Shown in pieces: positions 1,924 to 34,883 of a DNA stretch of 35,309 nucleotides (within the stretch, counting starts at the first letter, position 1; the number at the start of each line of letters is the position of its first letter). Both the position numbers and the translations under genes were made by a program. The notes under the pieces were generated by a model. It did not search any database and had not been told where the DNA came from. It saw only the letters and a program-made list of their open reading frames with translations. Source of the DNA: Terrimicrobiaceae bacterium (GTDB taxonomy: Bacteria; Verrucomicrobiota; Verrucomicrobiia; Chthoniobacterales; Terrimicrobiaceae); NCBI GenBank assembly GCA_044347585.1, contig JBIKUM010000001.1, positions 1 to 35,309 of the forward strand. Direction: 5' to 3'.

Positions 1924-3027
1924 CTATTCCCGGTCAAACACCGCAGGGAGAAGCAGTTGCCACATGGGCCTGCGTCGCAGAATGACATCGGCATCCACCG
2001 TGGAACCAATCGCCAAAGCTACGGGGGATTCTGTGACATCCACCGTTGCTTCGTAACGCCGCACGCCGCCGGGAACACTTTCCGGAAACGAAGGCTCGGT
2101 GGAAACATTGCGCAGGATTCCATGGGCGTGACCGTATTTGAACCATGGGATCGAGAGGGGACGCATGATGACCTCCTGACCAGCGGCGACTCGGATGATC
2201 TTTTCCTCGGCGAGGAAGATTTTGACGCGGTTCGCCGGTCCTCGCGAGATGTGGGCGAGTTTTTCACCGGCGTCCACGGACATCCCCGGGCGCCGTTTCT
2301 CGACGAGAGTGATGATTCCATCCTCCGGCGCCCGAATGAGGCAGCGCTCGACCATGGCGGCCGCATTGTCCCTCTCGACTTTCCAGCGGCCGACGACGGC
2401 TTTGGCAGCGGCGGTCTCTGCTTCGGCTTCGGCTATGACTTGTTCGCGGTAGCCACGGCTGAGGACATCGAGCTTTTCCTGAATTTTCTCCACTTCACCC
2501 CGTGATACTTCGCGCTGGGCGAGCGAGCGGTCGTAGTCCTGCCGGCTCGCGCCACCGGTTTTGGAGAGCGTTTCGTAGCGATCGCATTCTCGCTCCGCGA
2601 GGGCGAGGCGCTCGTTCGCCTGCTTGAGTTCCTCGGGCACATGCCAGAATTCCTTTGGCAACGGCAGTCCGCTCGTCTTTTGGAGTTGGGCCTCTTTCAA
2701 GCGAAGCGTGGCCTCGGCCTCCGCCAGCGAGGCTGCGGCGGAAGCCGCCCGCTGAGTGTAAAGAATCGAGTCCAACTCAAACAGAATATCCCCCTTTTTG
2801 ACGGCAGTGCCCTCCGGACAACGAATCGCGGCGAGGAGTCCGTCTTGCGGAGAAAAAACATGCACATCGTCCTGCGCTCTCACCACACCCGTGGCGGGGA
2901 CTTTTTCATCCACCGGCAGCAACAACACAATCGCGGCAATCAGAGGAACAATCAAAAACGCGGCTATAAAAATGAGAATCCGCATGCGGCGAAGGCGCAC
3001 TTGGATCGATGAGGAAAAGGCGGACAT
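1924..3027 (-). CDS. HlyD-family membrane fusion (periplasmic adaptor) protein
   Basis: Track ORF 1924..3060 trimmed to ATG 3027, 10 nt after the ABC stop. N-terminal TM helix ILIFIAAFLIVPLIAAIVLLL, lipoyl-type hairpin (VKKGDILFELD), a long Ala/Glu/Gln-rich helical stretch and a beta-rich C-terminus. Confidence 0.8.
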   Translation of the reverse strand: MSAFSSSIQVRLRRMRILIFIAAFLIVPLIAAIVLLLPVDEKVPATGVVRAQDDVHVFSPQDGLLAAIRCPEGTAVKKGDILFELDSILYTQRAASAAASLAEAEATLRLKEAQLQKTSGLPLPKEFWHVPEELKQANERLALAERECDRYETLSKTGGASRQDYDRSLAQREVSRGEVEKIQEKLDVLSRGYREQVIAEAEAETAAAKAVVGRWKVERDNAAAMVERCLIRAPEDGIITLVEKRRPGMSVDAGEKLAHISRGPANRVKIFLAEEKIIRVAAGQEVIMRPLSIPWFKYGHAHGILRNVSTEPSFPESVPGGVRRYEATVDVTESPVALAIGSTVDADVILRRRPMWQLLLPAVFDRE

Positions 3028-3037
3028 AGGAAAACCT

Positions 3038-4786
3038 TCAAGCCGCTGCCTGTGCAGCAACGACGGAGAGTTTCTGAAGATTGCGATAAGGACCCTCCAC
3101 TGCCATGAGTTCCTGATGTGTTCCCAACTGCGCGAGGCGGCCGGACTCCATCACGGCGATGCGGTTGGCACGGCGGATGGTGCTAAGGCGGTGGGCAACG
3201 ATGAACACCGTCCGGCCTTCCACAAGAGTGTCGAGGGATTGCTGCACAAGCGCCTCGCTTTCATTGTCGAGTGCGCTGGTGGCTTCGTCGAAAATCAAGA
3301 TCCGAGGGTCTTTCAACAAGCACCGGGCGATGGCGATGCGCTGGCGTTGTCCGCCGGAAAGCGTGGCGCCGCCTTGACCCACCTGCGCTTTGAGCCCGCC
3401 TTCCATCTTGGCGATGAATTCCCACGCATTCGCCAACTCGGCGGCGCGGCGCACCTCGTCCTCGGTCGCATCCGGACGCCCGTAGCGAATATTTTCATCA
3501 ATCGAGCCCGAAAAGAGGAAGTTGTCCTGGAGGACGATGCCGATCTGCTGGCGATAGATACCGTAGTCCAGTGTGCGCAAATCATGGCCATCGATTCGGA
3601 TCGTTCCCGAGGAGGGATCGTAGAAACGGGTGAGAAGGCTGATGAGAGTGGACTTGCCGCTGCCGCTCGGACCAACGAGGGCGATGATCTCGCCGGCAGG
3701 AACACTCAGGGTGAAGTCGTTCACAGCAACACCTCGGTCGTAGGAAAAATTCACATGGTCGAAATCCACCGCTCCACGAAGAGCAGGCAGTTCGATGGGA
3801 TTCGGTATTTCGGTGATGTTCGGCCGTATGTCGTGAAGGCTGAGAATGCGCTCGAATCCGGTGCGAGCACTGGTGCTGATTTGAATGAGGCTGGAGAGAT
3901 TTTGCAACGGGCCGAAGAGCATCATGAGGTAGCTTGTGAAAGCCACGAATGAGCCGAGCGACATGGCGCCATACATCACATTGCTGCCGCCCCAGAGGAG
4001 CACGGATCCGTAGACAACGGCAAAGATTCCAGCCAGGAAGAGCCACATGCGGGTGCCTAAGAGGGACAACTCCAGCTCGTGGGGAAAATTTTCGCGGATG
4101 CGCTGGATGAAGCGCCTGCGTTCGTGGTCCTCCTGGGCAAAACATTTCACAACCTTGATGCCGGTGAATGTCTCTCCCAGCGTGCCTGCCAAAGCCGACT
4201 GGCGCTCCTGAACATCGTGCGAGCGCGTGTGGAGCCCGCGCCGATACAGGTGGATCACGGCAAAATAAACAGGCAGGCTCGCCGTGCAGAAGAGGGCCAT
4301 TTTCCAATTCAGGAAAAACATGATCGTCATCGCCAGGGCGAGGGAGACCAGGCTGTTTGAAATGGTCGTGAGCGCCGTGGTGATAAACTGCTGCACAGCG
4401 GTGGCATCATGGACGACGCGGTTCACGAGACTCGCCGTGCGCTGGGTTTCGTAAAACGAGAGATGCAGCATCTGAAGGTGGTGGAACAAGGCTCGGCGGA
4501 TGTCGAAGACCACCCGCTGGCCGGTATAAAAGAGCAAGTAGTTGTGACCGTAGCCCACGAGATAGCGAACGCCTTCGAGGATGAGAAAGGCGACCACAAT
4601 GCCAGCGAGGAACGGCACATTGCGGCCGGGAATCGCCTCATCAATGACGAGCTTCATGAAAAGCGGCGCCATTGTTGCAATCGATACCGTAATCAGGTTT
4701 CCAACAGCGGAGACGCCAAGCAGGCCCTTGTAGCGGCGGACATAGCCCCAAAACCGGGCGGCCACAGGCTTCGAACGATCACTCAT
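3038..4786 (-). CDS. Fused TMD-NBD ABC exporter (MsbA/type-1 exporter class), no C39 peptidase domain
   Basis: 582 aa. Hydrophobic N-terminal half, then Walker A GPSGSGKST, signature LSGGQRQRIAIAR, Walker B ILIFDEATSALD, H-loop VAHRLST. ATG 4786 verified. Confidence 0.9.
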   Translation of the reverse strand: MSDRSKPVAARFWGYVRRYKGLLGVSAVGNLITVSIATMAPLFMKLVIDEAIPGRNVPFLAGIVVAFLILEGVRYLVGYGHNYLLFYTGQRVVFDIRRALFHHLQMLHLSFYETQRTASLVNRVVHDATAVQQFITTALTTISNSLVSLALAMTIMFFLNWKMALFCTASLPVYFAVIHLYRRGLHTRSHDVQERQSALAGTLGETFTGIKVVKCFAQEDHERRRFIQRIRENFPHELELSLLGTRMWLFLAGIFAVVYGSVLLWGGSNVMYGAMSLGSFVAFTSYLMMLFGPLQNLSSLIQISTSARTGFERILSLHDIRPNITEIPNPIELPALRGAVDFDHVNFSYDRGVAVNDFTLSVPAGEIIALVGPSGSGKSTLISLLTRFYDPSSGTIRIDGHDLRTLDYGIYRQQIGIVLQDNFLFSGSIDENIRYGRPDATEDEVRRAAELANAWEFIAKMEGGLKAQVGQGGATLSGGQRQRIAIARCLLKDPRILIFDEATSALDNESEALVQQSLDTLVEGRTVFIVAHRLSTIRRANRIAVMESGRLAQLGTHQELMAVEGPYRNLQKLSVVAAQAAA

Positions 4787-4874
4787 CGTGAGTAAAAGAG
4801 GTTCATCTTTGATCTGTGGATCACGATGACAGCACAGGACTTCCTTCCATGCGAATGAAAACTTTGGAGGGGGC

Positions 4875-5519
4875 TCAGGCAGGGTCTTCGATTTTTAAAC
4901 CGGACAGGTCAGGCTGGAACAGGTCGGGTGCGAGCTTCGGATTTTGCTCGATGAGGGTGAATTCCGTGGAGACTTCGCTGCCGTCGCGAAACACCATTTC
5001 AAAAAGGGAGACGGTTCCGGTTGAGGAATCGAAGCGGATGCGCAGGGATTTCATGCCTTCGGCGAGGCGCGGATCCTTGGGACGCAGGAGGAGATCGATC
5101 TGACCGGCGTTATTCTTCAAGGAAACGACTTCAAATCGGCGCTGGAATTCATCGAGCGAGACGGCGAATGGCATCGGCAGTTCCTCAAACACGCGACTCG
5201 CTGCGGAAGAGGCCGAAAGCCTGCGTGCGAGGGACTTTTTGGGTTCGATGACGAGCAAGTCGTTGGGGGATTTCACCACGAGCAGCTCCGCTGGGTCTCC
5301 AACTTGCCAGCGGAAACGGCCCTCGGTGCCGAACCAAACGGTGCCGGATTTTTTCAGCGGGATGCGAAGCGCGGGCAGGCGGCGGGTTTGGATGAAATCC
5401 GCCCGCAGCGAGCGGATGGCAGCTTGTTTGGCAATCCACTCACGGAGGATTTTATCCGTATCCTCGGCATGCAGCGGTGAAACAAGAAGGAGTAAAACAA
5501 GAAGGCGCAGGCGTTTCAT
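4875..5519 (-). CDS. Secreted LolA-like (outer-membrane lipoprotein carrier-like) protein
   Basis: 214 aa. Signal peptide MKRLRLLVLLLLVSPLHA followed by ED. The N-terminal pattern LRADFIQTR...KSGTVWF...RFRW resembles LolA-fold proteins by eye. The ATG overlaps the ligase stop (ATGA at 5516-5519). Confidence 0.65.
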   Translation of the reverse strand: MKRLRLLVLLLLVSPLHAEDTDKILREWIAKQAAIRSLRADFIQTRRLPALRIPLKKSGTVWFGTEGRFRWQVGDPAELLVVKSPNDLLVIEPKKSLARRLSASSAASRVFEELPMPFAVSLDEFQRRFEVVSLKNNAGQIDLLLRPKDPRLAEGMKSLRIRFDSSTGTVSLFEMVFRDGSEVSTEFTLIEQNPKLAPDLFQPDLSGLKIEDPA

Positions 5520-6880
5520 TGGCGTTTGATTTTCCCACTTGGAGTTTGAGGAATGTCGTCCACAAAACGAATCTCGATAGGAACTTTGTGGGCGGACAAC
5601 TCTCGGCGGCAGAGCTTGAGAAGTTCGAGGCGGGGCGGGGCGGGAGCGCCTGCGACCAATACGACCTCCGCAACGGGAACCATGCCGAAATCCGGATGCG
5701 ACCGTGCCACGACGCGACTGAGTTGAACAACAGAGTGGGTGTTGAGAACGGCTTCCACCTCATCGGGGAAAAATTTCATACCTCCAATCGAGATGGCCGT
5801 GCTGGTGCGGCCAAGGAGTGTTATGAAACCTTCGTCGTCGATTTCAGCGATATCGCCAGTGGCAAACCATCCCTCGTCGTCGAGGATTTCAGAGCGTGGT
5901 TGCCAAGGCGACAGATACGCATCAAGGCATCCAGGGCCTCGCAGAAGAAGCTGCGAGTCCTGAAGCTTGGCTTGAAAGGAAACTTGCGGACGGCCGATCG
6001 ATGCGGGTCGCCGTGCTGGTGCGGGGAAATTGAGACACGGCAGGCCTACTTCGATGATGCCGAGCGCTTGTGATGGATATATGCCGAACTTTTTTGAAAA
6101 CCTTTCGGCGGTGGATGCAGCCAAAGGCGCTGTGGTGGAGACGGCGAGCCGCCAGTGAACGGCGTCGGTGGACTCGCAACCGGATAGCATCTCGTAATGA
6201 AAAGGCGCCGCATACAAAACCGTGGCGCCAGCTCGTTTCGAAGCCTCAAGAAGATCACCCGGCAAATTCGACGCCGGGAAAACGATGCCCGCGCCATTCC
6301 AGAGGTAGAGCATGATCGAGACAGCAAAGTGGTGCGACATGGGCAGCACCCAGAGAATGCGGTCAAAGGGCGTGATGCGGAGGCCCTCGTTTGCAGCTGT
6401 GATGCGGTCCAGAAGGGTTTTGTGGGAAAGCGTGATGCCTTTGGCATGGCCAGTGGTGCCGGAAGTGAATCGAATGAAGGCGGGGTCGATTTCAGCAAGG
6501 GGCTTGATCCACTCAGGAGCCGGGGATGAATGGGCTGGCGACTCCAAGAGCACGCTGCCGGATACGGTTTGTTTCACGATGACATCCAAGCGAACCTCTT
6601 CAATCAACCGCTGGCGCTCTGGTGCGGAAAGCTCCGGCGCTATGGGAACAAAGCATCCGCCCGCCCGTAGAATGCCGAGAGCGTGCGCGATGTAATCCGC
6701 CCCATCCGGACATTCCAATCCGACTCGCGGACAAGGCAGGGATTCGATCAGCGGGGGCAGCTGCCGCATGAGACGGGCACTTTTTTCATCGAGGGCGGCG
6801 TAGGTCGTTTCCTGTCCATCTTGGAAAATGGCCACCGCAGCGGGATCGGCTTTTTTGAAAATCTCTTCGGCGATGTTCAT
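5516..6880 (-). CDS. Stand-alone AMP-forming adenylating enzyme (ANL superfamily; acyl/aryl/aminoacyl-carrier or CoA ligase)
   Basis: Track ORF 5516..7135 trimmed to ATG 6880 (MNIAEEIF); the extra 85 codons overlap the upstream gene. Motifs TSGTTGHAKG, ATGD, GRTSTAISIGGMKFFPDEVE and PQTPSGKIKR. Confidence 0.85.
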   Translation of the reverse strand: MNIAEEIFKKADPAAVAIFQDGQETTYAALDEKSARLMRQLPPLIESLPCPRVGLECPDGADYIAHALGILRAGGCFVPIAPELSAPERQRLIEEVRLDVIVKQTVSGSVLLESPAHSSPAPEWIKPLAEIDPAFIRFTSGTTGHAKGITLSHKTLLDRITAANEGLRITPFDRILWVLPMSHHFAVSIMLYLWNGAGIVFPASNLPGDLLEASKRAGATVLYAAPFHYEMLSGCESTDAVHWRLAVSTTAPLAASTAERFSKKFGIYPSQALGIIEVGLPCLNFPAPARRPASIGRPQVSFQAKLQDSQLLLRGPGCLDAYLSPWQPRSEILDDEGWFATGDIAEIDDEGFITLLGRTSTAISIGGMKFFPDEVEAVLNTHSVVQLSRVVARSHPDFGMVPVAEVVLVAGAPAPPRLELLKLCRRELSAHKVPIEIRFVDDIPQTPSGKIKRQ

Positions 6881-6881
6881 C

Positions 6882-8093
6882 TCAAAGTGCGACTGCCGCT
6901 TTGCCTGCCGCCTCCCCCGTGGCGAGACATGTGCCGGTGACGCGGATCGATGCCTGTGCCTCGTGCGTGCAGGAAATGCAACGACCGGCGACGAAGAGAT
7001 TCTCAAAGGTTCGTGAACGCAGGCAATCTGGCGAAATACCAGCGGGACGGTTCTCAACAGGAAACCGGAAGCGCGGACCCTTGGCGTTCTCGCGCAGCTC
7101 AAGTGGCCAACAGGCGAGGGCGGCGAGATTTTCAACTGGCCTTCCTTGGATAATGTCCTCCTCCGTGAGGCACGCCAGACCGCTCACTCGGCGGCTCTCA
7201 CGAATCCCCACCTGCACGGGTGTGCAGCTGATGCGGGCCTTTTCGAACCCCTCGGCGTGAGCCTGCAGATAACGCATGATTTCAAAAGCGAGCTGCCTTC
7301 CACTGCCCTCCACGCGCGTGAGGCACTCCGCTGAGCAGGGATCGTAGGGATCAGCCTGCAGATCGATTGTCGCCCAGACTTCGCTTCGGCTTATCCCGTG
7401 ACGAAAAGCAACGCCTAGCGCTTCGGGGGAGAGATGTTTTGATGCGACAGCGCCGCTTAGGAGATGCGCAAGCCTGAGGCGGGCATCACCAGCGAGAACA
7501 TTTTCGTCGGCGCCGGAAATTCCGAAAATGTAGGCCGGGCGTTGCAGGCGATCGGTTGGCGCACACTCAAAATCAGCACCCGCAAGCGCAGCAGCTTCGG
7601 CATCCCCCGAGGCATCAATGAGGGACTTCACTTCGACTGGAAAAATACTCCCACGCGAATGGAGATGCGCGACTTGGATTTTACCTGCAGCGGCTTCGAT
7701 CCTGTTGAGATCGGTATGGAGAAGAACGGTCAGGTTTTGAGTGCGACGCGTCAGTTCATCCGCCACCGCAGCGAGGGCGGCGGGGTGGTGCGGGAGGACA
7801 TCGAGTTTTCCCATTCGCACCGGGCCGGATGCGGCGCCTGCTTGGATGAGACTCTCGGCAAACTCTCGCGGGAAGCCCTCGTTGCCATAGGCCAGCGGTT
7901 GGGTGTCGTCATTTCTCAGGAGGTAAAGCCCGCAGAGCGTGTGAACAAGCGCATTGGAGGCCATGCCGCCAAGGGCGCTGCGCCTCTCGACGAGGAGCGT
8001 CTTCGCGCCAGTCCGCGCGGCGGACACTGCGGCGGCGATCCCGGCCGTGCCACCGCCCACGACCAGAGTGTCGAATTTTTCCGGGGAACTCAC
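6882..8093 (-). CDS. FAD-dependent oxidoreductase (GidA-like FAD_oxidored type), substrate unknown
   Basis: Dinucleotide fold VVGGGTAGIAAAVSAARTGAKTLLVERR. C-terminal LFVAGRCIS...IRVTGTCLATGEAAGKAA. The track start at 8123 is a TTG inside the ACP gene, whereas GTG 8093 lies 4 nt after the ACP stop. The stop at 6882-6884 is 1 nt from the ligase ATG. Confidence 0.75.
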   Translation of the reverse strand: MSSPEKFDTLVVGGGTAGIAAAVSAARTGAKTLLVERRSALGGMASNALVHTLCGLYLLRNDDTQPLAYGNEGFPREFAESLIQAGAASGPVRMGKLDVLPHHPAALAAVADELTRRTQNLTVLLHTDLNRIEAAAGKIQVAHLHSRGSIFPVEVKSLIDASGDAEAAALAGADFECAPTDRLQRPAYIFGISGADENVLAGDARLRLAHLLSGAVASKHLSPEALGVAFRHGISRSEVWATIDLQADPYDPCSAECLTRVEGSGRQLAFEIMRYLQAHAEGFEKARISCTPVQVGIRESRRVSGLACLTEEDIIQGRPVENLAALACWPLELRENAKGPRFRFPVENRPAGISPDCLRSRTFENLFVAGRCISCTHEAQASIRVTGTCLATGEAAGKAAVAL

Positions 8094-8097
8094 GGAC

Positions 8098-8352
8098 TTA
8101 CTCTGCCGGAATGAGCGCGGCAATTTTTTGCACGCTGGAGAAATTCTCCCTGTTCACCTGCGATACCGGAATGCGGCATCCGAAAGCGGTTTCGACATGG
8201 ATGAGAAGGCGCATGATCGACATCGAATCCAAGCCGGCTTCGAAGAGGTCGTCTGTGCATTTGAAATCCGGTTCGAGCTCGAGAATGTCGGAGGAAAGAA
8301 TGCCGAGGAGGCGGGCCTCTTTTTTTGCGATGGCGTCTGGTGTTTCAGCCAT
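8098..8352 (-). CDS. Acyl/peptidyl carrier protein (phosphopantetheine-binding)
   Basis: Track ORF 8098..8388 trimmed to ATG 8352 (84 aa), 11 nt after the metF stop. Attachment motif EAGLDSMSIMRLL in a small acidic helical protein. Confidence 0.8.
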   Translation of the reverse strand: MAETPDAIAKKEARLLGILSSDILELEPDFKCTDDLFEAGLDSMSIMRLLIHVETAFGCRIPVSQVNRENFSSVQKIAALIPAE

Positions 8353-8363
8353 GGGCGCAGGGT

Positions 8364-9251
8364 TCAGAGAATTCCCAGCCGCTGGCAAATCTCACGCGTG
8401 GCGGTGGATTGATTCAGCGTATAGAGATGGATGCCTGCGACGCCTTGATCGAGCAGGTCGGCGCATTGCTCGGTAGCGTAGTGGAGGCCGATCTGCCGGA
8501 ATGCCTCGCTGGACTCGCCTGCGCGTTGCAGGGCTTTCACAAGCCGCGCGGGAAAACGGGCGCCGCCGGCAAGTTCAGCCATTCGGCGCATCGAAGACTG
8601 GCTGGTCACAGGCATGATGCCCGCAATGATCGGGACATTGATGCCAGCCAACGCACACCGCTCGCGGAAGTCGTAGAAATCGTGGTTGTCGAAAAAAAGC
8701 TGGGTGCAGATGTAATCCGCTCCGGCATCCACCTTCGCCTTGAGGTAGTCCATTTCCAGCAAGCGATTCGGTGTGGCAGGGTGCCCCTCGGGAAACCCCG
8801 CAACCCCAATGCCAAAGCCGCGCGGATCGGGGTGTCCGCTGAAATTTTTCACGAAACGCACCAGATCCACTGCCTGCGGAAATGTGTCCTGCGAATGGTC
8901 GTAGTCCGGCTTGTCACGCGGTGGATCGCCCCGGAGAGCAAGGATATTGCTCACTCCCGCCGCCGCATAACGCTCGAGAATCGCCGAGATCTCTTCGCGT
9001 GTGTGGCCCACACAAGTCAGATGCGGCACCGGGTCCAGCGTCGTGGTGGTCTTCAGCCGAAGAACCAGATCATTCGTGAGTTCGCGGGTCGAACCGCCAG
9101 CGCCGTAGGTTACGCTGACGAAGTTCGGATGGATTTTTTCCAGCTCACGGATTGTGTCGTAGAGAGCGTGCTGTGCCTCGGCGGTCTTCGGTGGGAAAAA
9201 CTCGAACGATACGGTCGGTTTTCCGGGCTTGAGAATGTCGAGGATGTGCAT
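8364..9251 (-). CDS. metF: 5,10-methylenetetrahydrofolate reductase
   Basis: 295 aa. N-terminus SFEFFPPKT, then VTYGAGGSTR and the overall MetF pattern. ATG 9251 verified. Confidence 0.9.
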   Translation of the reverse strand: MHILDILKPGKPTVSFEFFPPKTAEAQHALYDTIRELEKIHPNFVSVTYGAGGSTRELTNDLVLRLKTTTTLDPVPHLTCVGHTREEISAILERYAAAGVSNILALRGDPPRDKPDYDHSQDTFPQAVDLVRFVKNFSGHPDPRGFGIGVAGFPEGHPATPNRLLEMDYLKAKVDAGADYICTQLFFDNHDFYDFRERCALAGINVPIIAGIMPVTSQSSMRRMAELAGGARFPARLVKALQRAGESSEAFRQIGLHYATEQCADLLDQGVAGIHLYTLNQSTATREICQRLGIL

Positions 9252-9437
9252 GGGGAAGAGTTTTAAGTTTTAGGTGTTAAGTTTGAAGTTTTTTCGGTCT
9301 GGAATTCTTTTTTGCAGACACCGTTGTTTATGCGCTGAGCCTCGTTGGTGTCGCTTAACACTTTCGCGAAGCGCATGCTGGAGGCATGACGCGAGCCAAT
9401 ACTGCACGAATAGATCAGGTCAACCGGCCTGTTCTGA

Positions 9438-9746
9438 CTATTTTCTGCCCCGTAAAAGCGCCCGTGCCGTAGAAGGCTTTCTCGCAGCATGCATGACAAG
9501 AGTGACAATCCATATGTTGGAGTGAAGGCGATAGTAAACTGAGTATGGAAAAGGACGGATCAGTATCTTGCGGAAGTCTTGATAGGCGGCACGGTAAATC
9601 TCTCCGTCTTGCTGAATGTGCGAAAGCGACGCATAAAAGGTATCCAGAAAACGATCCCCGAGGCCCGGATACTTCTGCTCGTCATACCATGCTGCAGCCT
9701 CCGCAACATCCTGCAATACCGCAGGAAGAATCCGAATCTCCCTCAT
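9438..9746 (-). CDS. Type II toxin, RelE/ParE family
   Basis: 102 aa. Typical ParE-like sequence (ILPAVLQDVAEAAAWY...PYSVYYRL...IWIVTLVMHAARKP). The ATG overlaps the antitoxin stop (ATGA at 9743-9746). Confidence 0.75.
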   Translation of the reverse strand: MREIRILPAVLQDVAEAAAWYDEQKYPGLGDRFLDTFYASLSHIQQDGEIYRAAYQDFRKILIRPFPYSVYYRLHSNIWIVTLVMHAARKPSTARALLRGRK

Positions 9747-9967
9747 GCGCGAATCGCATGGATTTTGCTTTTGAATACATCAATTGAAAGTGCAGAGGTA
9801 GGGTTACTAAGAAACTCCTCCCAGCGAATATCCAGTATATCTTTTTCTTCTTGAGTTACTTCCAAATAATCTGGAGTGGTAGATAAGCTTCTCCATATCT
9901 CGTCAACCAATTCCAACTTCTCGCGCGCCGACAGCGCTTGAACCTGAGGAAGTTCCGTGAGTGTCAT
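9743..9967 (-). CDS. Addiction-module antitoxin (Unstab_antitox-like)
   Basis: Track ORF 9743..10087 trimmed to ATG 9967 (74 aa). LSAREKLELVDEIWRSL...EEKDILDIRWEEF matches the pattern of small addiction-module components encoded upstream of ParE/RelE toxins. Confidence 0.65.
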   Translation of the reverse strand: MTLTELPQVQALSAREKLELVDEIWRSLSTTPDYLEVTQEEKDILDIRWEEFLSNPTSALSIDVFKSKIHAIRA

Positions 9968-10129
9968 GGTGTGAAAATAGCATGAAAATCGTGGGAGACA
10001 AGACAGTATTCCTAAAGTCCCCAGTGACCTATCCTTGCTTGCTTGTGGCGTGACTCCTGCCCGCAAAGCGGTATCAGCAAGCGGCACGACAGAAGTGCCG
10101 CAGGCGTAGGAATAAAATTCATCGGCTCG

Positions 10130-10950: not shown

Positions 10951-11928
10951 CTACCACCCAAGAATTTTAGCGAAAATTAGTGGAGCAACAATTGTTGCAT
11001 CTGATTCGATGATAAATTTCGGGGTTTTTTCGCCGAGTTTGCCCCATGTGATTTTCTCGTTGGGAACAGCGCCAGAATAGCTTCCGTAACTCGTTGTGGA
11101 ATCGCTGATCTGGCAGAAATATCCCCAAAGCGGCACATCCGTGCGGCGGAGGTCCTGGTGGAGCATAGGGACGACACAGATGGGGAAGTCGCCGGCGATG
11201 CCGCCGCCGATTTGGAAGAAGCCGATGGGTGTTTTGTGGCTGGTGGGGGCATACCAGTCGGCGAGGGCGATCATGTATTCGATGCCGGAGCGGACGGTGT
11301 GGACATTTTTCACATCCCCTTCAATGCAATGGCCGGCATACATGTTGCCGAGCGTGGAGTCTTCCCAGCCGGGCACGAACATGGGGAGCTTTTTCTCCTT
11401 GGCGGCGATCATCCAGCTGTTTTTGGGATCGATCTGGAAGCTTTTTTGAAGTTCGGGCGAGTCGAGGATGCGCCAGAAGAATTCGTGTGGGAAGAGGCGC
11501 TCGCCCTTGGCGTCGGCATCCATCCACTCTTTGAGGATGACATTTTCAATGCGGCGCATCGCTTCCATTTCGGGAATGCAGGTGTCGGTGACGCGGTTCA
11601 TGTGCCGCTCAAGGAGGGCTTGCTCGTCGGCGGGGGTGAGGTCGCGGTAGTGCGGGATGCGTTCGTAGAAATCGTGGGCGACGAGGTTGAAGATGTCTTC
11701 TTCGAGATTTGCACCAGTGCAAACGATGCCGTGGACTTTTCCTTGGCGAATCATTTCGGCGAGAGAAATGCCCAGTTCGGCCGTGCTCATGGCGCCAGCG
11801 AGTGTCATGAGCATGATACCGCCCTGATCGAGGTGGCGGGAATAGGCCTCAGCGGCGTCCTTGAGAGCGGCAGCGTTGAAGTGGCGGTAGTGGAGGTCGA
11901 TGAATTGAGAAACTGGGCCTTGTGACAT
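10951..11928 (-). CDS. Deoxyhypusine synthase-like protein (DHS/homospermidine synthase-like family)
   Basis: Track ORF trimmed to ATG 11928 (MSQGPVSQFIDLHYRHFNAA). TGANLEEDIFN and QIGGGIAGDFPI resemble DHS-family NAD/spermidine-site motifs by eye. Confidence 0.7.
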   Translation of the reverse strand: MSQGPVSQFIDLHYRHFNAAALKDAAEAYSRHLDQGGIMLMTLAGAMSTAELGISLAEMIRQGKVHGIVCTGANLEEDIFNLVAHDFYERIPHYRDLTPADEQALLERHMNRVTDTCIPEMEAMRRIENVILKEWMDADAKGERLFPHEFFWRILDSPELQKSFQIDPKNSWMIAAKEKKLPMFVPGWEDSTLGNMYAGHCIEGDVKNVHTVRSGIEYMIALADWYAPTSHKTPIGFFQIGGGIAGDFPICVVPMLHQDLRRTDVPLWGYFCQISDSTTSYGSYSGAVPNEKITWGKLGEKTPKFIIESDATIVAPLIFAKILGW

Positions 11929-12018
11929 GGTGTTTGTAAAGTGGAGTGGCGTGGTTTTTAGCAGGTTGGCAGGCGAGTGCAAAGATTGATCACTGCTTGG
12001 ATTGGCTATCTGGTGAGA

Positions 12019-13906: not shown

Positions 13907-14596
13907 TTACCAAAACCCCCACTGGCGAGTTGCCATGATGTAGAGGCCGAGACCGAGATTTGTCACCCCGTGCGCGAGCACGCAAGCGCCGAGGCTTCCG
14001 GTTCGCACGGCGACGAAATTATAGATCACTCCGCAAATCAAGGCGGCCGGCCAATCCGCCAATCCATGCACCAACATGAAACAGATCGCCACGATCGCGA
14101 AGGATTTCAATTGAAACGCTCCCACCGGCAGCGAGGTGAAATCCTCCCGGATCAAATACCGCATCAAAAACCCGCGCCAAAAAATTTCCTCTACCAAAGG
14201 AACAATGATTACCAACCGCGCAAAGCGCGCCACGACAGTCATCCAATAAAGCGCGGAACCCTCGCCGAACACCGTGGGATCAAATCCATCCACCCGCGCC
14301 CCCGCGCCCAGAAACGCCTGCGGAGCGATCCAGAGGCCGAGCACCACCACGCCGGCAGCCAGAGCCAGCAGGGTTCCACCGCGTTTTGCGAAGTCATATT
14401 GCCGCCAATAAAAAACCAGCACCGCAGCGCACAAGGCCGTTTGGAGCGGGTAGACCCAATATTCCGGACTTCGCAACCAGAGTGAATCGGCGGATGGATT
14501 TTTGACGAGCGAGACCAACATCAACCCGCCCATGAAAACAAAAAACGGCGTTGTGTAAGCCGCCAGCGGCGAGCGCAGCGAAGAAGGTAAATTCAT
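13907..14596 (-). CDS. CPBP-family intramembrane glutamic endopeptidase (CAAX protease-related)
   Basis: Track ORF trimmed to ATG 14596. Polytopic membrane protein with motifs VEEIFWRGF, FMLVHGL and AHGVTN. The stop lies 5 nt before the nadE ATG. Confidence 0.8.
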   Translation of the reverse strand: MNLPSSLRSPLAAYTTPFFVFMGGLMLVSLVKNPSADSLWLRSPEYWVYPLQTALCAAVLVFYWRQYDFAKRGGTLLALAAGVVVLGLWIAPQAFLGAGARVDGFDPTVFGEGSALYWMTVVARFARLVIIVPLVEEIFWRGFLMRYLIREDFTSLPVGAFQLKSFAIVAICFMLVHGLADWPAALICGVIYNFVAVRTGSLGACVLAHGVTNLGLGLYIMATRQWGFW

Positions 14597-14654
14597 CGCC
14601 CGACAATCAATCACACCTCGCCCGACAATTAAAGACGCCGCTTCGCGCAACCCC

Positions 14655-14786
14655 TTGGAGGGCCAACCTCCGGCTTGACCCAAGACTGAACCGCTTCGTT
14701 ATCGCACCGTCTCGTTCCCATTACGCCGTGCAAACAAAAACGCCGCTTCGCAGCTGAAACTTGGGTCATGCGAGGACGATGAACCC
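14655..14786 (+). repeat. Copy 1 of a roughly 120-130 nt repeated, hairpin-bounded intergenic element (candidate ncRNA/REP-like)
   Basis: About 80-85% identical by eye to 18450-18569 in the same orientation. 5' hairpin GGAGG-gccaa-CCTCC (14657-14671). 3' hairpin GGGTCAT...ATGA(A)CCC (14763-14786). Confidence 0.6.
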
Positions 14787-18577: not shown

Positions 18578-19783
18578 TTACGATGCTGCGAGGGTTTCGT
18601 AGAGGGCTTTGGTTTGTTTGGCGATGGAGGCCCAGGAGAAGGTGTCGATGGCGCGTTGGCGTCCGGCGTTGCCGAAGGCTTTTTGTTTGGCGGGGTCGGC
18701 CATGATTTCGTTGATGCGAGTGGCGAGGTCGCGGGAGAATTTTTTGGGGTTGACCGGTTCGAACGGGCTCTCCGTCATTTGCTCGACGGGGATGAGGTAG
18801 CCGGTTTCGCCATGGACGACGACTTCGGGGATACCGCCGACGGCGCTGGCCACGACGGCGCGTCCGCAGGCCATGGCTTCGAGGTTGATGATGCCGAAGG
18901 GCTCGTAGATCGAGGGGCAGACGAAGACGCCGGCGTGGCTGTAGAGTTCGATCTTGGATTTGTTGTCGAGCATCTGGTCGATCCAGATGATGCCGTCGCG
19001 TTGGCTTTGGGCTTGGGAGACGGCGGCTTTCATTTCGGCTGCGATCTCGGGTGTGTCGGGCGCTCCGGCGCAGAGGACGATCTGGAAGCCGGGGTCGAGA
19101 TGCTGGATGGCGTTGACGAGGTGGATAATGCCTTTCTGGCGGGTGATGCGGCCGAGGAAGAGGGCGTAGGGTTTGGCGGAGTCAATGCCGAAGCGGTCGA
19201 GCACGCTGCGAGTCGTGACGGCCTGGTATTCCGCCGGGTCGATGCCGTTGTAGATGATGTGGAGGCGTGCGGGGTCGATCTGGAAAAGCTTTTCCACATC
19301 GCGGCGGGTGCCTTCGGAGACGGCGATGACGGCGTCAGCCATTTCGAGGGCGGTGCGTTCGAGCCAGCAAGTGAAGTCGTAGCCGCCGCCGAGTTGCTCG
19401 CGTTTCCAAGGCCGGAGCGGCTCGAGCGAGTGGACGGTGATGACGAGGGGAATGCCGTAGTTCAGCTTGGCGAGGATGCCGCCGAAGTGGGCATACCAAG
19501 TGTGGCAATGCACGACGCCGGCGTCGATGTTGGCAGTGTTGAAATTGAGGCAGCGCTGGAGAGCACCGAAGACGGATTGAAGCTGTTTCGGAGATGTCCA
19601 CCCGGCTGCGTCGAGGCCGACGCCTTGGGCGGCCAGCTGGCCGGCGGAGGTGTTTTGGTCGCCGAAGCAGCGGACATCCACAGGCATGAGCTTGGCGAGT
19701 TCGCGGCTGAGGTATTCGACATGAACGCCGGCGCCGCCGTAGATGTGGGGTGGATATTCGTTGGTGAGGAACAGGGCTTTCAT
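18578..19783 (-). CDS. GT4 glycosyltransferase, glycogen-synthase-like (Corynebacterium-type GlgA family by eye)
   Basis: Track ORF trimmed to ATG 19783 (MKALFLTNEYPPHIYGGAGVHV). C-terminal YEPFGIINLEAMACGRAVVASAVGGIPEVV. Confidence 0.75.
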   Translation of the reverse strand: MKALFLTNEYPPHIYGGAGVHVEYLSRELAKLMPVDVRCFGDQNTSAGQLAAQGVGLDAAGWTSPKQLQSVFGALQRCLNFNTANIDAGVVHCHTWYAHFGGILAKLNYGIPLVITVHSLEPLRPWKREQLGGGYDFTCWLERTALEMADAVIAVSEGTRRDVEKLFQIDPARLHIIYNGIDPAEYQAVTTRSVLDRFGIDSAKPYALFLGRITRQKGIIHLVNAIQHLDPGFQIVLCAGAPDTPEIAAEMKAAVSQAQSQRDGIIWIDQMLDNKSKIELYSHAGVFVCPSIYEPFGIINLEAMACGRAVVASAVGGIPEVVVHGETGYLIPVEQMTESPFEPVNPKKFSRDLATRINEIMADPAKQKAFGNAGRQRAIDTFSWASIAKQTKALYETLAAS

Positions 19784-19797
19784 GGGACTGGATTGAT

Positions 19798-20265
19798 TCA
19801 CATCAGGCGGCAGGGAATGGAGAATTGGAGCTGGCCGGCGCCGGGCTCGAGCCATGGCGCGTCGATGGCGGTGAGGGAGGCTTTTTTCACTAGCACGGCG
19901 GCGGGCTCGGGAGTTCCCAAAAGCTCGCCGATGGTTGTGCTGAAATCGGGTTCGTGACCGACGAGCAAGACAGAGTCGCTGGCAGCGTGGGGCGCGAGGC
20001 GTGCAAGCAGGGTGGAAGTTTCCATCCCGCAGGCGAGCCAGCTTTCGATGGCGACTTCGCGCCCGAGCGTTTCAGCGACGATCTCCGCTGTCTGCCTGGC
20101 GCGGGTCACGGGACTGCTGAGAATAACGGCTGGATCGAGCCCATGACTGGCGCAGAATTTTCCAACCTTCGCCGCCTGCTGCAGCCCTTTGGGCGTGAGT
20201 TTGCGGTCGAAGTCCGACTCGGCCAGATCCTCGGCTTCGGCGTGGCGCAGGAAGTAGATCGTCAT
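19798..20265 (-). CDS. sixA: Phosphohistidine phosphatase SixA-like (histidine phosphatase superfamily)
   Basis: 155 aa. IYFLRHAEA catalytic motif and downstream LVGHEPD. Confidence 0.7.
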   Translation of the reverse strand: MTIYFLRHAEAEDLAESDFDRKLTPKGLQQAAKVGKFCASHGLDPAVILSSPVTRARQTAEIVAETLGREVAIESWLACGMETSTLLARLAPHAASDSVLLVGHEPDFSTTIGELLGTPEPAAVLVKKASLTAIDAPWLEPGAGQLQFSIPCRLM

Positions 20266-20282
20266 GGAGGGAGGCTGCTTTT

Positions 20283-21035
20283 TTACATGCTCATGCCGCC
20301 ATCCACTGCGAGCACTTGGCCGCTGATGTAGGAGGCTTCGGCGCTGGCGAGGAAACTCACGGCGGCGGCGATGTCATCCGTCGCACCAAATCGAGCGACC
20401 GGAATCTGCGAGAGAGCGCCTTTGCGGACTTCTTCGTTGAGCACGGAGGTCATGTCGGTCTCGATGAAACCCGGGGCGACGACATTGACTGTGATGCCAC
20501 GGCTGGCGATTTCGCGGGCGATGCTCTTGGTCATGCCAATGAGGCCGGCTTTGCTGGCAGCGTAGTTGGCCTGGCCGGCGAGGCCCATGAGTCCGCTCAC
20601 GGAGCTGATATTGATGATGCGGCCGGAGCGTTGTTTGACCATGGCGCGGAGGATGGCTCGGGTGAAATTGAAGGCGCCTTTGAGATTGGTCTGGAGCACG
20701 ACATCCCAGTCGTCGCTCGACATGCGCATGGCGAGTGTATCGCGGGTGATGCCGGCATTGTTGACCAGAATGTCGCAACGGCCAAAGTCGGCGAGTATCT
20801 GATCACCGGTTTTTTGCACGGCGTCGAAGTCGGCGACATCCACCGCGTAGGGCTTGGCTGCACCTGGCGTGACGGCGTTGATGGCGTCGGCCGTGCGTGC
20901 GGAGTTGGATTCCGTGCGGCTGACGACGGCGATTTTCGCGCCTTCGGTGGCGAGGCGTTTTGCGATGGCTTCGCCGATGCCGCGACCTGCTCCGGTGACG
21001 ACGGCGACCTGATTTTCAAATCGTTTTGTGCTCAT
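20283..21035 (-). CDS. fabG: 3-oxoacyl-ACP reductase-like short-chain dehydrogenase
   Basis: Track ORF trimmed to ATG 21035. VTGAGRGIG, NNAG and YAASKAG motifs. Confidence 0.8.
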   Translation of the reverse strand: MSTKRFENQVAVVTGAGRGIGEAIAKRLATEGAKIAVVSRTESNSARTADAINAVTPGAAKPYAVDVADFDAVQKTGDQILADFGRCDILVNNAGITRDTLAMRMSSDDWDVVLQTNLKGAFNFTRAILRAMVKQRSGRIINISSVSGLMGLAGQANYAASKAGLIGMTKSIAREIASRGITVNVVAPGFIETDMTSVLNEEVRKGALSQIPVARFGATDDIAAAVSFLASAEASYISGQVLAVDGGMSM

Positions 21036-21212
21036 GCTGGAGGGCACAGAAGACCACCGCTGAAGCGGATTGGAAACAAAATTTTCCATCCGATTTTTTC
21101 CCAACGCATCGCTCGGCGCTCAGGCGTCTCATCTCCGCTTCGCCAACGATCTCAACCCTCGAATCCACTCGACGCCCAAACTCGAAATGACCAGGAATAT
21201 CCATGTCCGTAA

Positions 21213-21250
21213 CGACCAAAAATTTGGACGATCGTCCAAATTTTTGGTCG
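21213..21250. repeat. 38-bp perfect palindrome CGACCAAAAATTTGGACGA|TCGTCCAAATTTTTGGTCG
   Basis: Verified base by base: positions 21213-21231 are the exact reverse complement of 21232-21250. It lies about 180 bp upstream of the fabG-like start. Confidence 0.9.
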
Positions 21251-21395
21251 CGGTAGTTTATAAGTTGCTCCTGGAAAAAGAAGTGTAGGGTTTCTGAAAA
21301 AAGCACTTTTTTTGAAGGTGTGTCTTTTTTGCAAAAGCAGGAGGTTGAATTTGGAATCCGGGGCAAGAACGCAGGCGGTGAGCGTTTGACAAATA

Positions 21396-21469: not shown

Positions 21470-22150
21470 CTAACGACTCGCGACCGTGCGAGAATCGGGC
21501 AGGGCGAGGTTTTTGATGACGGTCATGAGATAGACCGGCTCGGGGTGTTTGTCCCTGTATTTGGTGATTTCGCGTTTCTCGACGACGCGGAATCCGAATC
21601 GCTCGAAAAGCTTCGCACCGCGCCGGGACTCGAAGGTGACGACTTGGCCGAAGACCTCCTTCTCGCCATGCGCGCGGAGGAAGTCGAAATACTTGTTCGT
21701 CATGGCCTGCGTCGTGGCGAGTTTTTGCGCCTCGGGCAGGACATTGAAATGAAAGTGCGCCGTGCGGCGGGGCGCGGCGGGGACTTCGCGCCAGGAATTT
21801 TTGAGAATCCAGCGGATGAAGCCGCGCGTGGCCTCGTTGTAGCCACGGTAGCGGAACATTCCGATGCCGAAGAGGCGGAGGTTTTGGAAAAAGCCATACC
21901 ACTGGTGGCGCAGCGGACGCCGGGAGCCGAGGAGGTAGCCTTTGACCACGCCGTCCTGCTCAAGCACAAACGCCGCCTCAGGCTCCACATCGGTGTAGTA
22001 GGCGGTGAGGTAGTCGGCGAAGAGCTCGCGGTCCTCGAAAACCGGATCGATCGGCTTGCCGAGAAAACCCGTCTCGCAACAAAGTCGCCTCACCGCCGCA
22101 CGGTCGCGGGGCTCGTAATTGCGAATGATGGTATCAGGCGTATGGGCCAC
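21470..22150 (-). CDS. GNAT-family N-acetyltransferase (start uncertain)
   Basis: The track ORF starts at a TTG (22252) inside the upstream terminator, so GTG 22150 (then AHTPDTIIRNYEPRD) is proposed instead. GNAT-like core VVKGYLLG...FGQVVTFESRRGAKLFERFGF. Confidence 0.6.
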   Translation of the reverse strand: MAHTPDTIIRNYEPRDRAAVRRLCCETGFLGKPIDPVFEDRELFADYLTAYYTDVEPEAAFVLEQDGVVKGYLLGSRRPLRHQWYGFFQNLRLFGIGMFRYRGYNEATRGFIRWILKNSWREVPAAPRRTAHFHFNVLPEAQKLATTQAMTNKYFDFLRAHGEKEVFGQVVTFESRRGAKLFERFGFRVVEKREITKYRDKHPEPVYLMTVIKNLALPDSRTVASR

Positions 22151-22250
22151 AGCAGGACATACTATGCAGGCGCTCCTGCTCAGAGAAGGAAATTGAGATC
22201 GTTGTAGGCGCCCACTTGCAGAGCGGGCTGGAGACACAGTCCTGAAAAGC

Positions 22251-22283
22251 AAAAAAAGACCACCATATCGGGTGGTCTTTTTT
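22251..22283. terminator. Bidirectional intrinsic terminator-like hairpin
   Basis: AAAAAAA-GACCACC-atatcg-GGTGGTC-TTTTTT. It lies 34 nt downstream of the exosortase stop, with A and T runs on either side. Confidence 0.6.
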
Positions 22284-22316: not shown

Positions 22317-23372
22317 TCAGTAGTCGTCCTCGGTCTTTTTTTGCATGGAACTCGAAGGCGGTGGAGGGGGCCGTAGCGCGGTAGCGGGAGTCCGTTGCCG
22401 AAAGAGCGATCTCAAGCCTTGCGTCAGAAATTCCCGAATGGATGAGGCGTTCAGCAGGATTTTGGAAATGCCAACCATCCCGCCCAAGGCCACGGCGAAG
22501 ACAAGCAAACCCGCAATAACATGGAACCATGATGGATCGGTGAGAGGATTTTTCCCAATCGCAAACTCCGACCCGAACACAATCGTGCCAATCGTAAGCA
22601 TGAGAATCCGCGCCAGATTTCCCGCAATGGCTAGCGGTGCCGAGCACAGGAAAAGAATCCATTTCTGCCACCAATTTTTCATCTCCATATGTCCATAGAG
22701 CGCGCTCGCCATCATCAGCGAAAAAAGCGACCTAATGCCGGAACACGGATCCGCCACATCCACCGCAAACTTTTTACCCGCCGGAATCCCCAGCAACGGC
22801 TCCGGCGCCGAAAGGATTCCCGTGCCATTCCTCACCACATCGATACCAATGAAATCCAACGAAAAAACCGCCGCATGCGACATGAGCATGCGGAGGGGAA
22901 AGGCGATGTAGTTGTCCAGAAACGGCACCGGCCAGGCAAAAGCAAGGAAGATGAGAGGGAAGGCAAAAAACAAAACTGTTTTGCCTCCCAGAAGGAACCA
23001 AATCGAGCCGGCAACCATTCCTTGAAAGGCAAAGAATCCGATGAAGTGGGTGCCCATACGCTGCCCCGCCCAAAAGCAGGCAAACGCTACAACGACCATA
23101 ACAAAACCAAGCCAAGAGGTCGATGGCGTCGGTAGGGGTTTTTGGTGGATAGTGTGGATGAAGATAAGGATTGCCACGGGAAAAACGAACAAACAATGCC
23201 CCCAGTCACCGCTGCCTTTGGAGAGGTTCCAAAATTGCTTGAAAGCCGACTCGGGAATAGGTCCATAACCTTGTGAATAAGGGACAAATGCAAAAAGTAA
23301 AAAAGGCACAAGCCAGGCCATCGCCAGCGCGATGAGCTGACGATTTGAGGCATGCGATCGCATTTGCGACAT
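22317..23372 (-). CDS. Exosortase-family transpeptidase (EpsH/Xrt)
   Basis: Polytopic membrane protein with the family signature residues DVADPCSGIRSL (Cys) and IAGNLARI (Arg). Candidate starts are GTG 23384, ATG 23372 and ATG 23363. It has a Pro/Ser-rich cytoplasmic tail. Confidence 0.85.
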   Translation of the reverse strand: MSQMRSHASNRQLIALAMAWLVPFLLFAFVPYSQGYGPIPESAFKQFWNLSKGSGDWGHCLFVFPVAILIFIHTIHQKPLPTPSTSWLGFVMVVVAFACFWAGQRMGTHFIGFFAFQGMVAGSIWFLLGGKTVLFFAFPLIFLAFAWPVPFLDNYIAFPLRMLMSHAAVFSLDFIGIDVVRNGTGILSAPEPLLGIPAGKKFAVDVADPCSGIRSLFSLMMASALYGHMEMKNWWQKWILFLCSAPLAIAGNLARILMLTIGTIVFGSEFAIGKNPLTDPSWFHVIAGLLVFAVALGGMVGISKILLNASSIREFLTQGLRSLFRQRTPATALRPPPPPSSSMQKKTEDDY

Positions 23373-23605
23373 GTAACTATCCACAATTGGAATTAACGGG
23401 TTGAGTGTTCAAGTGCTTTTCTACGATGGCGAAAGTAGTGGGGTCTTTTACAGGATGAAGTGTCCAAGCTCCATGTTTTTGTGCTTTAGCAGGCGAGGGG
23501 CGTTTCGACACCAAATTTTGGACGAACTCCCCTGCGATCGAACTTGGCGGAGTCGGGAGCCCAAAAGTGCGATCATTTGATTCCTATAAACCGAAAGAAA
23601 ATTTT

Positions 23606-24745: not shown

Positions 24746-25086
24746 AAAAAATATGTTTTTTAGACGAAATTTAAAAATTAACGGCACTATTGGGAGATGA
24801 GTAAAAACTATCCACCCCATCAATTTTTTGTTATTCTATGTGTGCCGAGGCGATTTCAGGATAAGGCGCAAAGAGGGGGCTGGGAATAACTTTCGGTGGT
24901 CTTAGACGCGCCGTTTAGGGGTGATACCAAAGTAGGCAAGTTCAAGCGTCGCTCATTGAGACGCGGCTATAAGTGAAAACGGCTTGCTTAAATTTAAACC
25001 TAATAGCCATTGGTTTTATGAGTCTCGAGTGACTGGTGGCAAGTTTGAGTAGTGGATCGCATCGTATTTAAAAAGACCGAATCCTC

Positions 25087-27158: not shown

Positions 27159-27319
27159 AGACGTGTGTTATGGAATTGTTTCCGTGCGCATGTCTAAAAG
27201 CGGAGAGCATGACGGCTTCTGTTAATCGGACATGCAAGCAAGTTTATCTCAGTGATAATTGAGGTTTGAAATGTAACCTATTGGAAAAACTATCGCCTAA
27301 GAAAATAGATTTATACTAA

Positions 27320-28525: not shown

Positions 28526-28531
28526 AGGAAC

Positions 28532-31348: not shown

Positions 31349-31351
31349 AGG

Positions 31352-32896: not shown

Positions 32897-32977
32897 TTAT
32901 AAGCAGAATATTTAAATATTTTATTGATAAGTTTATACTTTAAAAATGAAGGTGGTTTTTAGCAAACAAAATAATAA

Positions 32978-34879: not shown

Positions 34880-34883
34880 GCTT

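Follow-up and report, generated by a model that had tools for sequence, protein, structure and literature searches.

Xanthomonadins and flexirubins are halogenated, methylated aryl lipids. The aryl polyene (APE) gene set of Escherichia coli CFT073 includes an acyl-acyl carrier protein (ACP) synthetase (ApeH), ACPs (ApeE/F), a lysophospholipid acyltransferase (LPLAT; ApeD), a glycosyltransferase (ApeJ), a LolA-like protein (ApeL) and an RND protein (ApeM) (PMC8253772), and in xanthomonadin synthesis XanA2 ligates 3-hydroxybenzoate to the ACP XanC (PMC6859482). We analyzed a 35,309-nucleotide stretch of DNA from a Terrimicrobiaceae bacterium of the Verrucomicrobiota (contig JBIKUM010000001.1, positions 1 to 35,309; hereafter the window), the minus strand of which carries closely packed genes for an ACP, a FAD-dependent oxidoreductase, an adenylate-forming ligase and a LolA-fold carrier. 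On our analysis, this locus would best be placed, as a reduced variant, with the APE/xanthomonadin-like envelope-lipid clusters. We give a probability of about 0.5 to the reading that the ACP–FAD–ligase–LolA operon is a reduced, lineage-specific form of a Verrucomicrobiota cassette and acts in the acylation of envelope lipids. The genes concerned, and the two transporter genes that follow them, are as follows.

8098..8352, minus strand: stand-alone ACP of 84 aa with the motif GLDSMS; ATG at 8352, TAA stop at 8100-8098; PP-binding (PF00550), E 5e-11.
6882..8093, minus strand: FAD-dependent oxidoreductase of 403 aa; GTG start at 8093, stop at 6884-6882; FAD_oxidored (PF12831) over the full length, E 6e-78.
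5516..6880, minus strand: short class-I adenylate-forming ligase of 454 aa; ATG at 6880, TGA stop; AMP-binding (E 6e-42) and AMP-binding_C (E 6e-14).
4875..5519, minus strand: secreted LolA-fold carrier of 214 aa; stop at 4877-4875; LolA (PF03548), E 2e-16.
3038..4786, minus strand: fused, MsbA-like ABC exporter of 582 aa without a peptidase domain; ATG at 4786, stop at 3040-3038; ABC_membrane (E 1e-45) and ABC_tran (E 1e-35).
1924..3027, minus strand: HlyD-family membrane-fusion adaptor of 367 aa, paired with the ABC gene; ATG at 3027, stop at 1924; HlyD_3 (E 8e-8) and Biotin_lipoyl_2.

The ACP stop is separated by 4 nt from the GTG of the FAD gene and the FAD stop by 1 nt from the ATG of the ligase, the TGA of which shares an ATGA with the ATG of the LolA gene (5519-5516, a 4-nt overlap). 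A gap of 88 nt separates the LolA and ABC genes, and one of 10 nt the ABC and HlyD genes. Promoter and terminator counts in the 88-nt gap were at the level of shuffled sequences and its RNA fold had a z-score of -0.6, which is uninformative. The metF gene (8364-9251, minus strand), which passes its own equivalog model, is co-oriented with the others, with only 11 nt between its end and the ACP start. The packed run therefore extends further upstream than an earlier note on this DNA had it, and the ACP–FAD–ligase–LolA operon is probably co-transcribed with metF. None of the six proteins reached an NCBIfam equivalog cut-off; none is therefore a recognized housekeeping or named enzyme. The coordinates, spacers and overlap given in the earlier note were all verified on the sequence and its six domain calls were upheld by Pfam, but it had counted five minus-strand genes where six are co-oriented. 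It had also reported no condensing enzyme, and no acyltransferase or thioesterase. With queries from relatives, tblastn yielded no ketosynthase (KS), chain length factor (CLF), LPLAT/PlsC, FabA-like dehydratase, condensation-domain-like (C-like), MMPL or halogenase match in the 35-kb window, which supports the first statement; the second stands for the acyltransferase types known from the relatives, and no thioesterase was seen either, although no search was aimed at one.

When one genome of each GTDB species was scanned, 588 ligase relatives were recovered, the best 80 of which all belonged to the Verrucomicrobiota, and 94 related loci (identified below by L numbers) were surveyed by tblastn with the window proteins and proteins from relatives as queries. 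More than 120 clusters of ligase orthologues, with 48-100% identity, were found. The closest ligases (77-86% identity) came from freshwater Terrimicrobiaceae/'Spartobacteria' metagenome-assembled genomes, and those of Chthoniobacter flavus Ellin428 (L074) and Prosthecobacter fluviatilis (L069) were about 47% identical to that of the window. The trio ACP–FAD(PF12831)–ligase was present in about 50 Verrucomicrobiota species from at least two orders, in otherwise unrelated surroundings; among 67 species-level loci with at least 3 kb upstream, 57 had the FAD gene and 48 had both ACP and FAD genes in the same order. The arrangement ACP–FAD–ligase–LolA was found only in the family-level clade of the window and in a sister clade (ligase identity about 60%), where L021, L093 and L094 have the order ACP–FAD–ligase–LolA–MMPL with 4-nt overlaps. 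In a neighbor-joining tree of the ligases, these two clades were sisters among other cassette lineages. The six-gene order, together with the upstream metF, deoxyhypusine-synthase-like, nadE and CPBP genes, occurred only at ligase identities of at least 80% (L007, L011 and L013-L016). Judged from gene order, conservation is phylum-wide for the trio and reaches the family level for the trio plus LolA; the six genes are not a conserved unit.

Other observations concern the surroundings of the trio. The metF gene overlaps the ACP start by 8 nt in L092. A deoxyhypusine/homospermidine-synthase-like gene (10951-11982, minus strand, in the window) lies upstream of the ACP gene in the window clade and immediately upstream in the KS-containing loci L003 and L037, which suggests an old linkage. 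In L009/L010, a 190-aa methyltransferase-like ORF (9432-10004, plus strand) precedes, with a 4-nt overlap, a ligase orthologue (53% identity) located beside recC, with no ACP, FAD or LolA gene.

The phosphopantetheine Asp-Ser was invariant in all 63 ACP homologues, and in the relatives the FAD gene is directly preceded by the ACP gene. The best NCBIfam matches of the ACP were a PRK07081-type ACP and then DltC, both below cut-off. Orthologues of the FAD enzyme (46-96% identity) have a distribution that tracks the ligase family. Its AlphaFold2 (AF2) model had a pLDDT of 93, and Foldseek against the PDB retrieved only generic flavoproteins with two dinucleotide-binding domains (TM ≤0.5), while PDB sequence matches were confined to the dinucleotide-binding N-terminus; the substrate domain has no solved relative. 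In C. flavus Ellin428 (L074:8766-10014, plus strand), the cassette FAD gene seems to be split into two overlapping ORFs, possibly by a frameshift or a sequencing error. The ligase gave its best NCBIfam match with PRK06187 (185 of 476 bits), above AA-adenyl-dom (120 bits), and its top PDB matches were MatB, feruloyl-CoA synthetase, FadD13 and 4CL. Its core residues A3/A7/A8/A10 were invariant in 20 orthologues, as was a His-His pair, read from the sequences, at the position of the FDxS of amino-acid adenylation (A) domains. The acyl-CoA-ligase-type scores, the PDB matches and the His-His pair suggest that an acid without an alpha-amino group is the likelier substrate.

The LolA-like protein has a Sec-type signal peptide and, as read from the sequence, no lipobox Cys. 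Its AF2 model (pLDDT 86) matched the LolA proteins of Pseudomonas aeruginosa, E. coli and Porphyromonas gingivalis best in Foldseek (TM 0.68-0.79), a fold that cannot by itself separate a dedicated carrier from a housekeeping LolA. The score against the housekeeping LolA model TIGR00547 (58.9 bits) was below the cut-off of 112, and the flexirubin model LolA2_flexi, with 45 bits, also remained below its own cut-off. A LolA gene follows the ligase in L007, L008, L011, L013-L017, L092, L021, L093 and L094, and LolA homologues with 30-38% identity are found beside MMPL genes inside the larger clusters of relatives. A search for LolA homologues gave 134 matches, restricted to the window clade and its sister clade, and is uninformative on the presence of a separate housekeeping LolA. 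The overlap with the ligase in two clades, the LolA–MMPL overlap and the homologues in larger clusters speak for a LolA that serves, or is at least associated with, the cluster; the occurrence of the trio without LolA in L001-type loci speaks against it.

The association of the two transporter genes with the cassette is doubtful. The ABC gene was a neighbor of the cassette in L007, L011 and L013-L016 only and the HlyD gene had the same distribution; both were absent from L021 and all more distant loci. In L008, L017 and L092 (ligase identity 77-78%), unrelated opposite-strand genes follow LolA, and in L016 the LolA and ABC genes are kept apart by about 3 kb of ORFs on the opposite strand. In L013-L015, an MMPL gene (about 19680-21333, plus strand, running off the end of the locus) was found 8.3 kb downstream of the ligase, past ABC-HlyD and a Liv operon. 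This MMPL and the one coupled to LolA in L021 share 50% identity, and since the LolA proteins of the two clades are 48-50% identical (ligases 59%), the two are taken to be orthologues. The displaced orthologue indicates that ABC-HlyD, plus the Liv genes, became inserted between LolA and MMPL in a shallow sub-clade. From these comparisons the ancestral exporter looks like an MMPL transporter, and as the same Liv genes are found at the left edge of the window, its MMPL gene probably lies just beyond position 1. The ABC/HlyD pair is most likely an independent efflux unit, which could have been co-opted. The ABC protein scored 474 bits against MsbA_rel (cut-off 780) and 408 of 726 bits against the type I secretion model TIGR01846; the HlyD protein scored 93.9 bits against RND_mfp (cut-off 94.9) and 86.7 of 209 bits against type_I_hlyD (TIGR01843). 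No TolC-like gene was seen beside ABC/HlyD in the window, L007 or L013. A bacteriocin-type exporter with a CPBP immunity protein was considered and rejected: the ABC protein lacks a peptidase domain, and the supposed immunity protein belongs to the TIGR03008 equivalog.

In more distant relatives (ligase identity 43-53%), the usual order is ACP–'unk451'–FAD–ligase–flavin halogenase. The 'unk451' protein, of roughly 450 aa and encoded between the ACP and FAD genes in most relatives, has homologues in 36 loci (for example L005:7348-8703, plus strand; L074:7402-8769; and L092:943-2280, immediately upstream of the CPBP gene). As a single sequence it matched no Pfam or NCBIfam family. However, it has a W-x-H-x(3)-D-G motif that is invariant, and a profile of 16 members gave a match to a nonribosomal peptide synthetase (NRPS) condensation domain (8xjz, E 8.5e-7), with weaker ones to heterocyclization domains and PapA5; 8 of the 16 members weakly matched PF00668. 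On this evidence it is a divergent, free-standing acyltransferase of the condensation superfamily. In the 45 loci with at least 8 kb on both sides, the companions were the FAD enzyme (37 loci), the ACP and a halogenase (32 each), C-like (23), CPBP (21), MMPL (19), LolA (18), a methyltransferase (10), a deacetylase (9), and LPLAT/PlsC and a patatin (8 each). Loci L003 and L037 have the order ACP–FAD–ligase–family 2 glycosyltransferase (GT2)–deacetylase–ACP2–LPLAT–FabZ-like dehydratase (DH)–LolA–MMPL–KS–CLF, with the same content in L004, and no second adenylating enzyme is visible in L003. The C. flavus locus (L074) encodes a deacetylase, a PlsC-type acyltransferase, a patatin, an ACP, a C-like protein, the FAD enzyme, the ligase, a halogenase and a methyltransferase, with MMPL and LolA on the opposite strand and then another halogenase, and no KS in 21 kb. 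The cassettes of relatives carry one to three flavin halogenases and a methyltransferase; a chorismatase and an ammonia-lyase were sought in these clusters and neither was found, the genes seen being those for Na+/H+-exchanger-family proteins, methyltransferases, PlsC and extra halogenases. In two separate lineages (L023:8678-9907 and L066:5912-7183, both plus strand), the halogenase beside the ligase is followed by a membrane gene of the Na+/H+-exchanger family; these genes may serve ion or halide handling for the halogenases.

In the mechanism that we propose for the ACP–FAD–ligase–LolA operon, the ligase would adenylate an aromatic or fatty carboxylic acid without an alpha-amino group and load it directly onto the dedicated ACP, like ApeH and XanA2. 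The PF12831 flavoenzyme would then oxidize or hydroxylate the ACP-bound group, acyltransferases encoded elsewhere in the genome would put the acyl unit on an envelope lipid, and an inner-membrane exporter would pass this lipid to the LolA-fold carrier for transfer to the outer membrane. Several findings weigh against this reading. The window offers no acyltransferase, KS or C-like gene, and its genes thus leave the passage from acyl-ACP to lipid unexplained. The PDB sequence search and Foldseek yielded no functional assignment for the flavoenzyme. The LolA model is closest to canonical LolA, and the gene could be, or double as, the housekeeping LolA. In L001 and L018-L020 the order is ACP–FAD–ligase–dprA and no LolA or exporter gene adjoins, and in L052/L061 the ligase is found without ACP or FAD (ribD–ligase–CPBP), so the parts can work apart. 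Of 90 loci, only about 6 (including L003/L004, L037, L062 and L066) had KS/CLF genes within ±10 kb, and polyketide extension may therefore not belong to the system in most lineages. Finally, the ligase is 24% identical to CFT073 ApeH over 272 aa (BLASTP, E 0.002), a general likeness of the ANL superfamily, and LolA resembles ApeL marginally and at the N-terminus only. What the locus shares with APE is therefore the logic and the gene content and not orthology; the ligase was rejected as an ApeH orthologue on the identity and the pairwise E value.

The earlier note had proposed a self-contained six-gene pathway, in which an oxidized acyl group is handed to LolA and exported or attached through ABC/HlyD with no need for a condensing enzyme. 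Parts of this proposal stand. The tight order in about 50 species and the invariant ACP serine support a true conserved functional unit of ligase, ACP and FAD enzyme; the ligase falls below every equivalog cut-off and is not a housekeeping FadD; the 4-nt overlap kept in two sister clades ties the LolA-like gene to the ligase; and the pointer to aryl-polyene and flexirubin-type clusters is borne out by the relatives, which place the cassette by LolA and MMPL, LPLAT/PlsC, GT2, a dehydratase and sometimes KS/CLF. For the complete pathway, it can be said that the genes are co-oriented and tightly packed with no convincing terminator in the LolA-ABC gap, that the order is kept in L007, L011 and L013-L015, and that the MMPL exporter after LolA in the sister clade makes an exporter at that position plausible, so that ABC/HlyD could have replaced MMPL. 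However, the six-gene order is confined to a shallow clade, ABC/HlyD are missing from L008, L017, L092 and all more distant loci and split off in L016, the orthologous and apparently ancestral MMPL partner is kept 8.3 kb away in L013-L015, and the six genes encode no enzyme to release or transfer the acyl group from the ACP. Nor is the lack of a condensing enzyme a trait of the system: it characterizes the reduced lineage, most relatives having a C-like gene and about six loci KS/CLF, and the set in the window is a cut-down version of the wider cassette. We therefore consider the six-gene pathway unlikely. It is also rather improbable that there is no dedicated pathway at all, with the genes neighbors through local synteny, LolA a housekeeping chaperone and the ligase a general acyl-CoA synthetase. 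The run is embedded among housekeeping genes (metF, deoxyhypusine-synthase-like and nadE) with conserved synteny, the LolA model is nearest canonical LolA, and LolA is not next to the trio in L001 and L018-L020. Such an explanation is at odds with the order of the trio across at least two Verrucomicrobiota orders in unrelated surroundings, the ligase/LolA start/stop overlaps in two clades, the recurrence of LolA homologues beside MMPL in larger clusters and the failure of the ligase to reach any housekeeping equivalog cut-off.

A Dlt-like or pyrrole-type module, in which an amino acid would be loaded in the manner of DltA/DltC or PltF/PltL and the flavoenzyme would oxidize the aminoacyl thioester, appears very improbable. 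Like Dlt, the locus combines an adenylating enzyme with a carrier of roughly 80 aa and a product destined for the envelope; DltC is the second-best NCBIfam match of the ACP, the ligase has 113-bit matches to NRPS A domains, and relatives pair the cassette with a C-like protein and flavin halogenases, a pairing that recalls carrier-tethered halopyrrole pathways. However, every such match is below cut-off (36.5 bits against 68 for DltC), the DltA model is absent from the top ligase matches, and the acyl-CoA ligase model outscores AA-adenyl-dom. The invariant His-His, of the P-x-x-H type of acyl-CoA ligases, replaces the amino-group-binding Asp of FDxS, the flavoenzyme belongs to PF12831 and not to the acyl-CoA-dehydrogenase fold of pyrrole pathways and, with LolA, is additional to the Dlt set, and there is no DltB/MBOAT or DltD-like gene in the window. 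The cassette (ACP, Pfam-less condensation-like enzyme, PF12831 flavoenzyme, ligase and sometimes halogenase) might alternatively provide Verrucomicrobia with the small-molecule part of PEP-CTERM/exosortase sorting: a tailored acyl or lipid moiety would be used by a TIGR03008 protein and an exosortase to process, modify or anchor PEP-CTERM surface proteins, with LolA/MMPL ferrying the product or anchor to the outer membrane, a proposal to be compared with the bioinformatically defined XrtA-associated ligase family. A CPBP/CAAX-protease-like membrane protein encoded in the window (13907..14683, minus strand), possibly a displaced cassette companion, passes TIGR03008 (pepcterm_CAAX) with 174.1 bits (cut-off 81) and is 45% identical to the product of the gene directly after ligase–halogenase in Prosthecobacter-type loci, where the homologue also passes (homologues: L005, 110.6 bits; L092, 177.2 bits). 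TIGR03008 members lie near the ligase in many loci, CPBP homologues occurring in 21 of the 45 fully flanked ones, and ligase–CPBP persists in L052/L061 without ACP or FAD; EpsH–CAAX-protease fusions were recorded by Haft et al. (PMC1569441). The ligase also shares with TIGR03098 (ligase_PEP_1), an AMP-forming ligase family genomically linked to PEP-CTERM components, this type of neighborhood, but it scores 125.1 bits against a cut-off of 592. The exosortase gene 14 kb away, which had been put forward as a link, is not a conserved neighbor: an exosortase-family gene was found within ±10 kb only in the window (22317-23384) and in L017, on opposite sides of the ligase in the two, whereas the TIGR03008 gene does recur. 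Moreover, in Chthoniobacter-type loci LolA/MMPL and lipid enzymes come without a CPBP gene, and nadE, the deoxyhypusine-synthase-like gene and metF intervene between the CPBP and ACP genes of the window. A role of the cassette in exosortase sorting is thus also considered unlikely.

Other features were observed around the exosortase gene. FabG (20283-21104, minus strand) passes the 3-oxoacyl-ACP reductase equivalog (331 bits) and lies apart from any fab operon, between sixA and a 260-aa ORF (21470-22252, minus strand) that is adjacent to the exosortase gene, has no Pfam or NCBIfam match at E ≤1 and is GNAT-like by eye. From 23000 to 35309, directly beside the exosortase gene, the G+C content falls from about 58% to 35-49%, and this island, where glycosyltransferases and methyltransferases are encoded together with a Wzy-like polymerase and large membrane proteins without a family match, probably represents a polysaccharide locus that was acquired.

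Lakes and soils harbor abundant Verrucomicrobia, the envelope lipids of which have, to our knowledge, hardly been studied. The literature searched, on PF12831 and on aryl polyenes, flexirubins or xanthomonadins in Verrucomicrobia or Chthoniobacter, yielded no description of this cassette. Our analysis defines it as a phylum-wide set of a carrier protein, a short adenylating ligase and a PF12831 flavoenzyme, joined in most lineages by a condensation-like enzyme without a Pfam match. The cassette has been wired repeatedly to LolA/MMPL lipid export and to halogenases. The lineage of the window offers a natural minimal version (ACP–FAD–ligase–LolA), a handy entry to the substrate and to the flavoenzyme reaction, and the recurrent TIGR03008 neighbor provides a testable, though weak, lead on the chemistry that accompanies exosortase sorting.

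The comparison with described systems suggests that the locus belongs to a known class of envelope-lipid clusters and is not a new kind of system. APE clusters lack the PF12831 flavoenzyme, the C-like protein and the pepcterm_CAAX gene found in the Verrucomicrobia cassette or its relatives, and the window trio, unlike APE, has no KS, ketoreductase (KR), DH, LPLAT or glycosyltransferase partners, a lone FabG lying elsewhere in the window. The xanthomonadin and flexirubin clusters differ in that no halogenase or methyltransferase gene adjoins the trio of the window. The LolA protein has a sub-threshold match to the LolA2 model of flexirubin clusters, and the ACP is weakly ApeF-like. As in APE, a stand-alone adenylating enzyme of about 450 aa is encoded next to a small dedicated ACP (PMC8253772, PMC12624758). 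Of an export pair of the ApeL/ApeM kind, the window carries the LolA-fold gene, coupled to the ligase, and the MMPL gene is known from the relatives; in relatives, LPLAT, GT2, a FabZ-like dehydratase, KS and CLF are also found within one locus. The start of the pathway would be comparable to that of xanthomonadin, in which, setting XanA2/XanC beside the cassette by description, an aryl acid is ligated directly to the ACP (PMC6859482).

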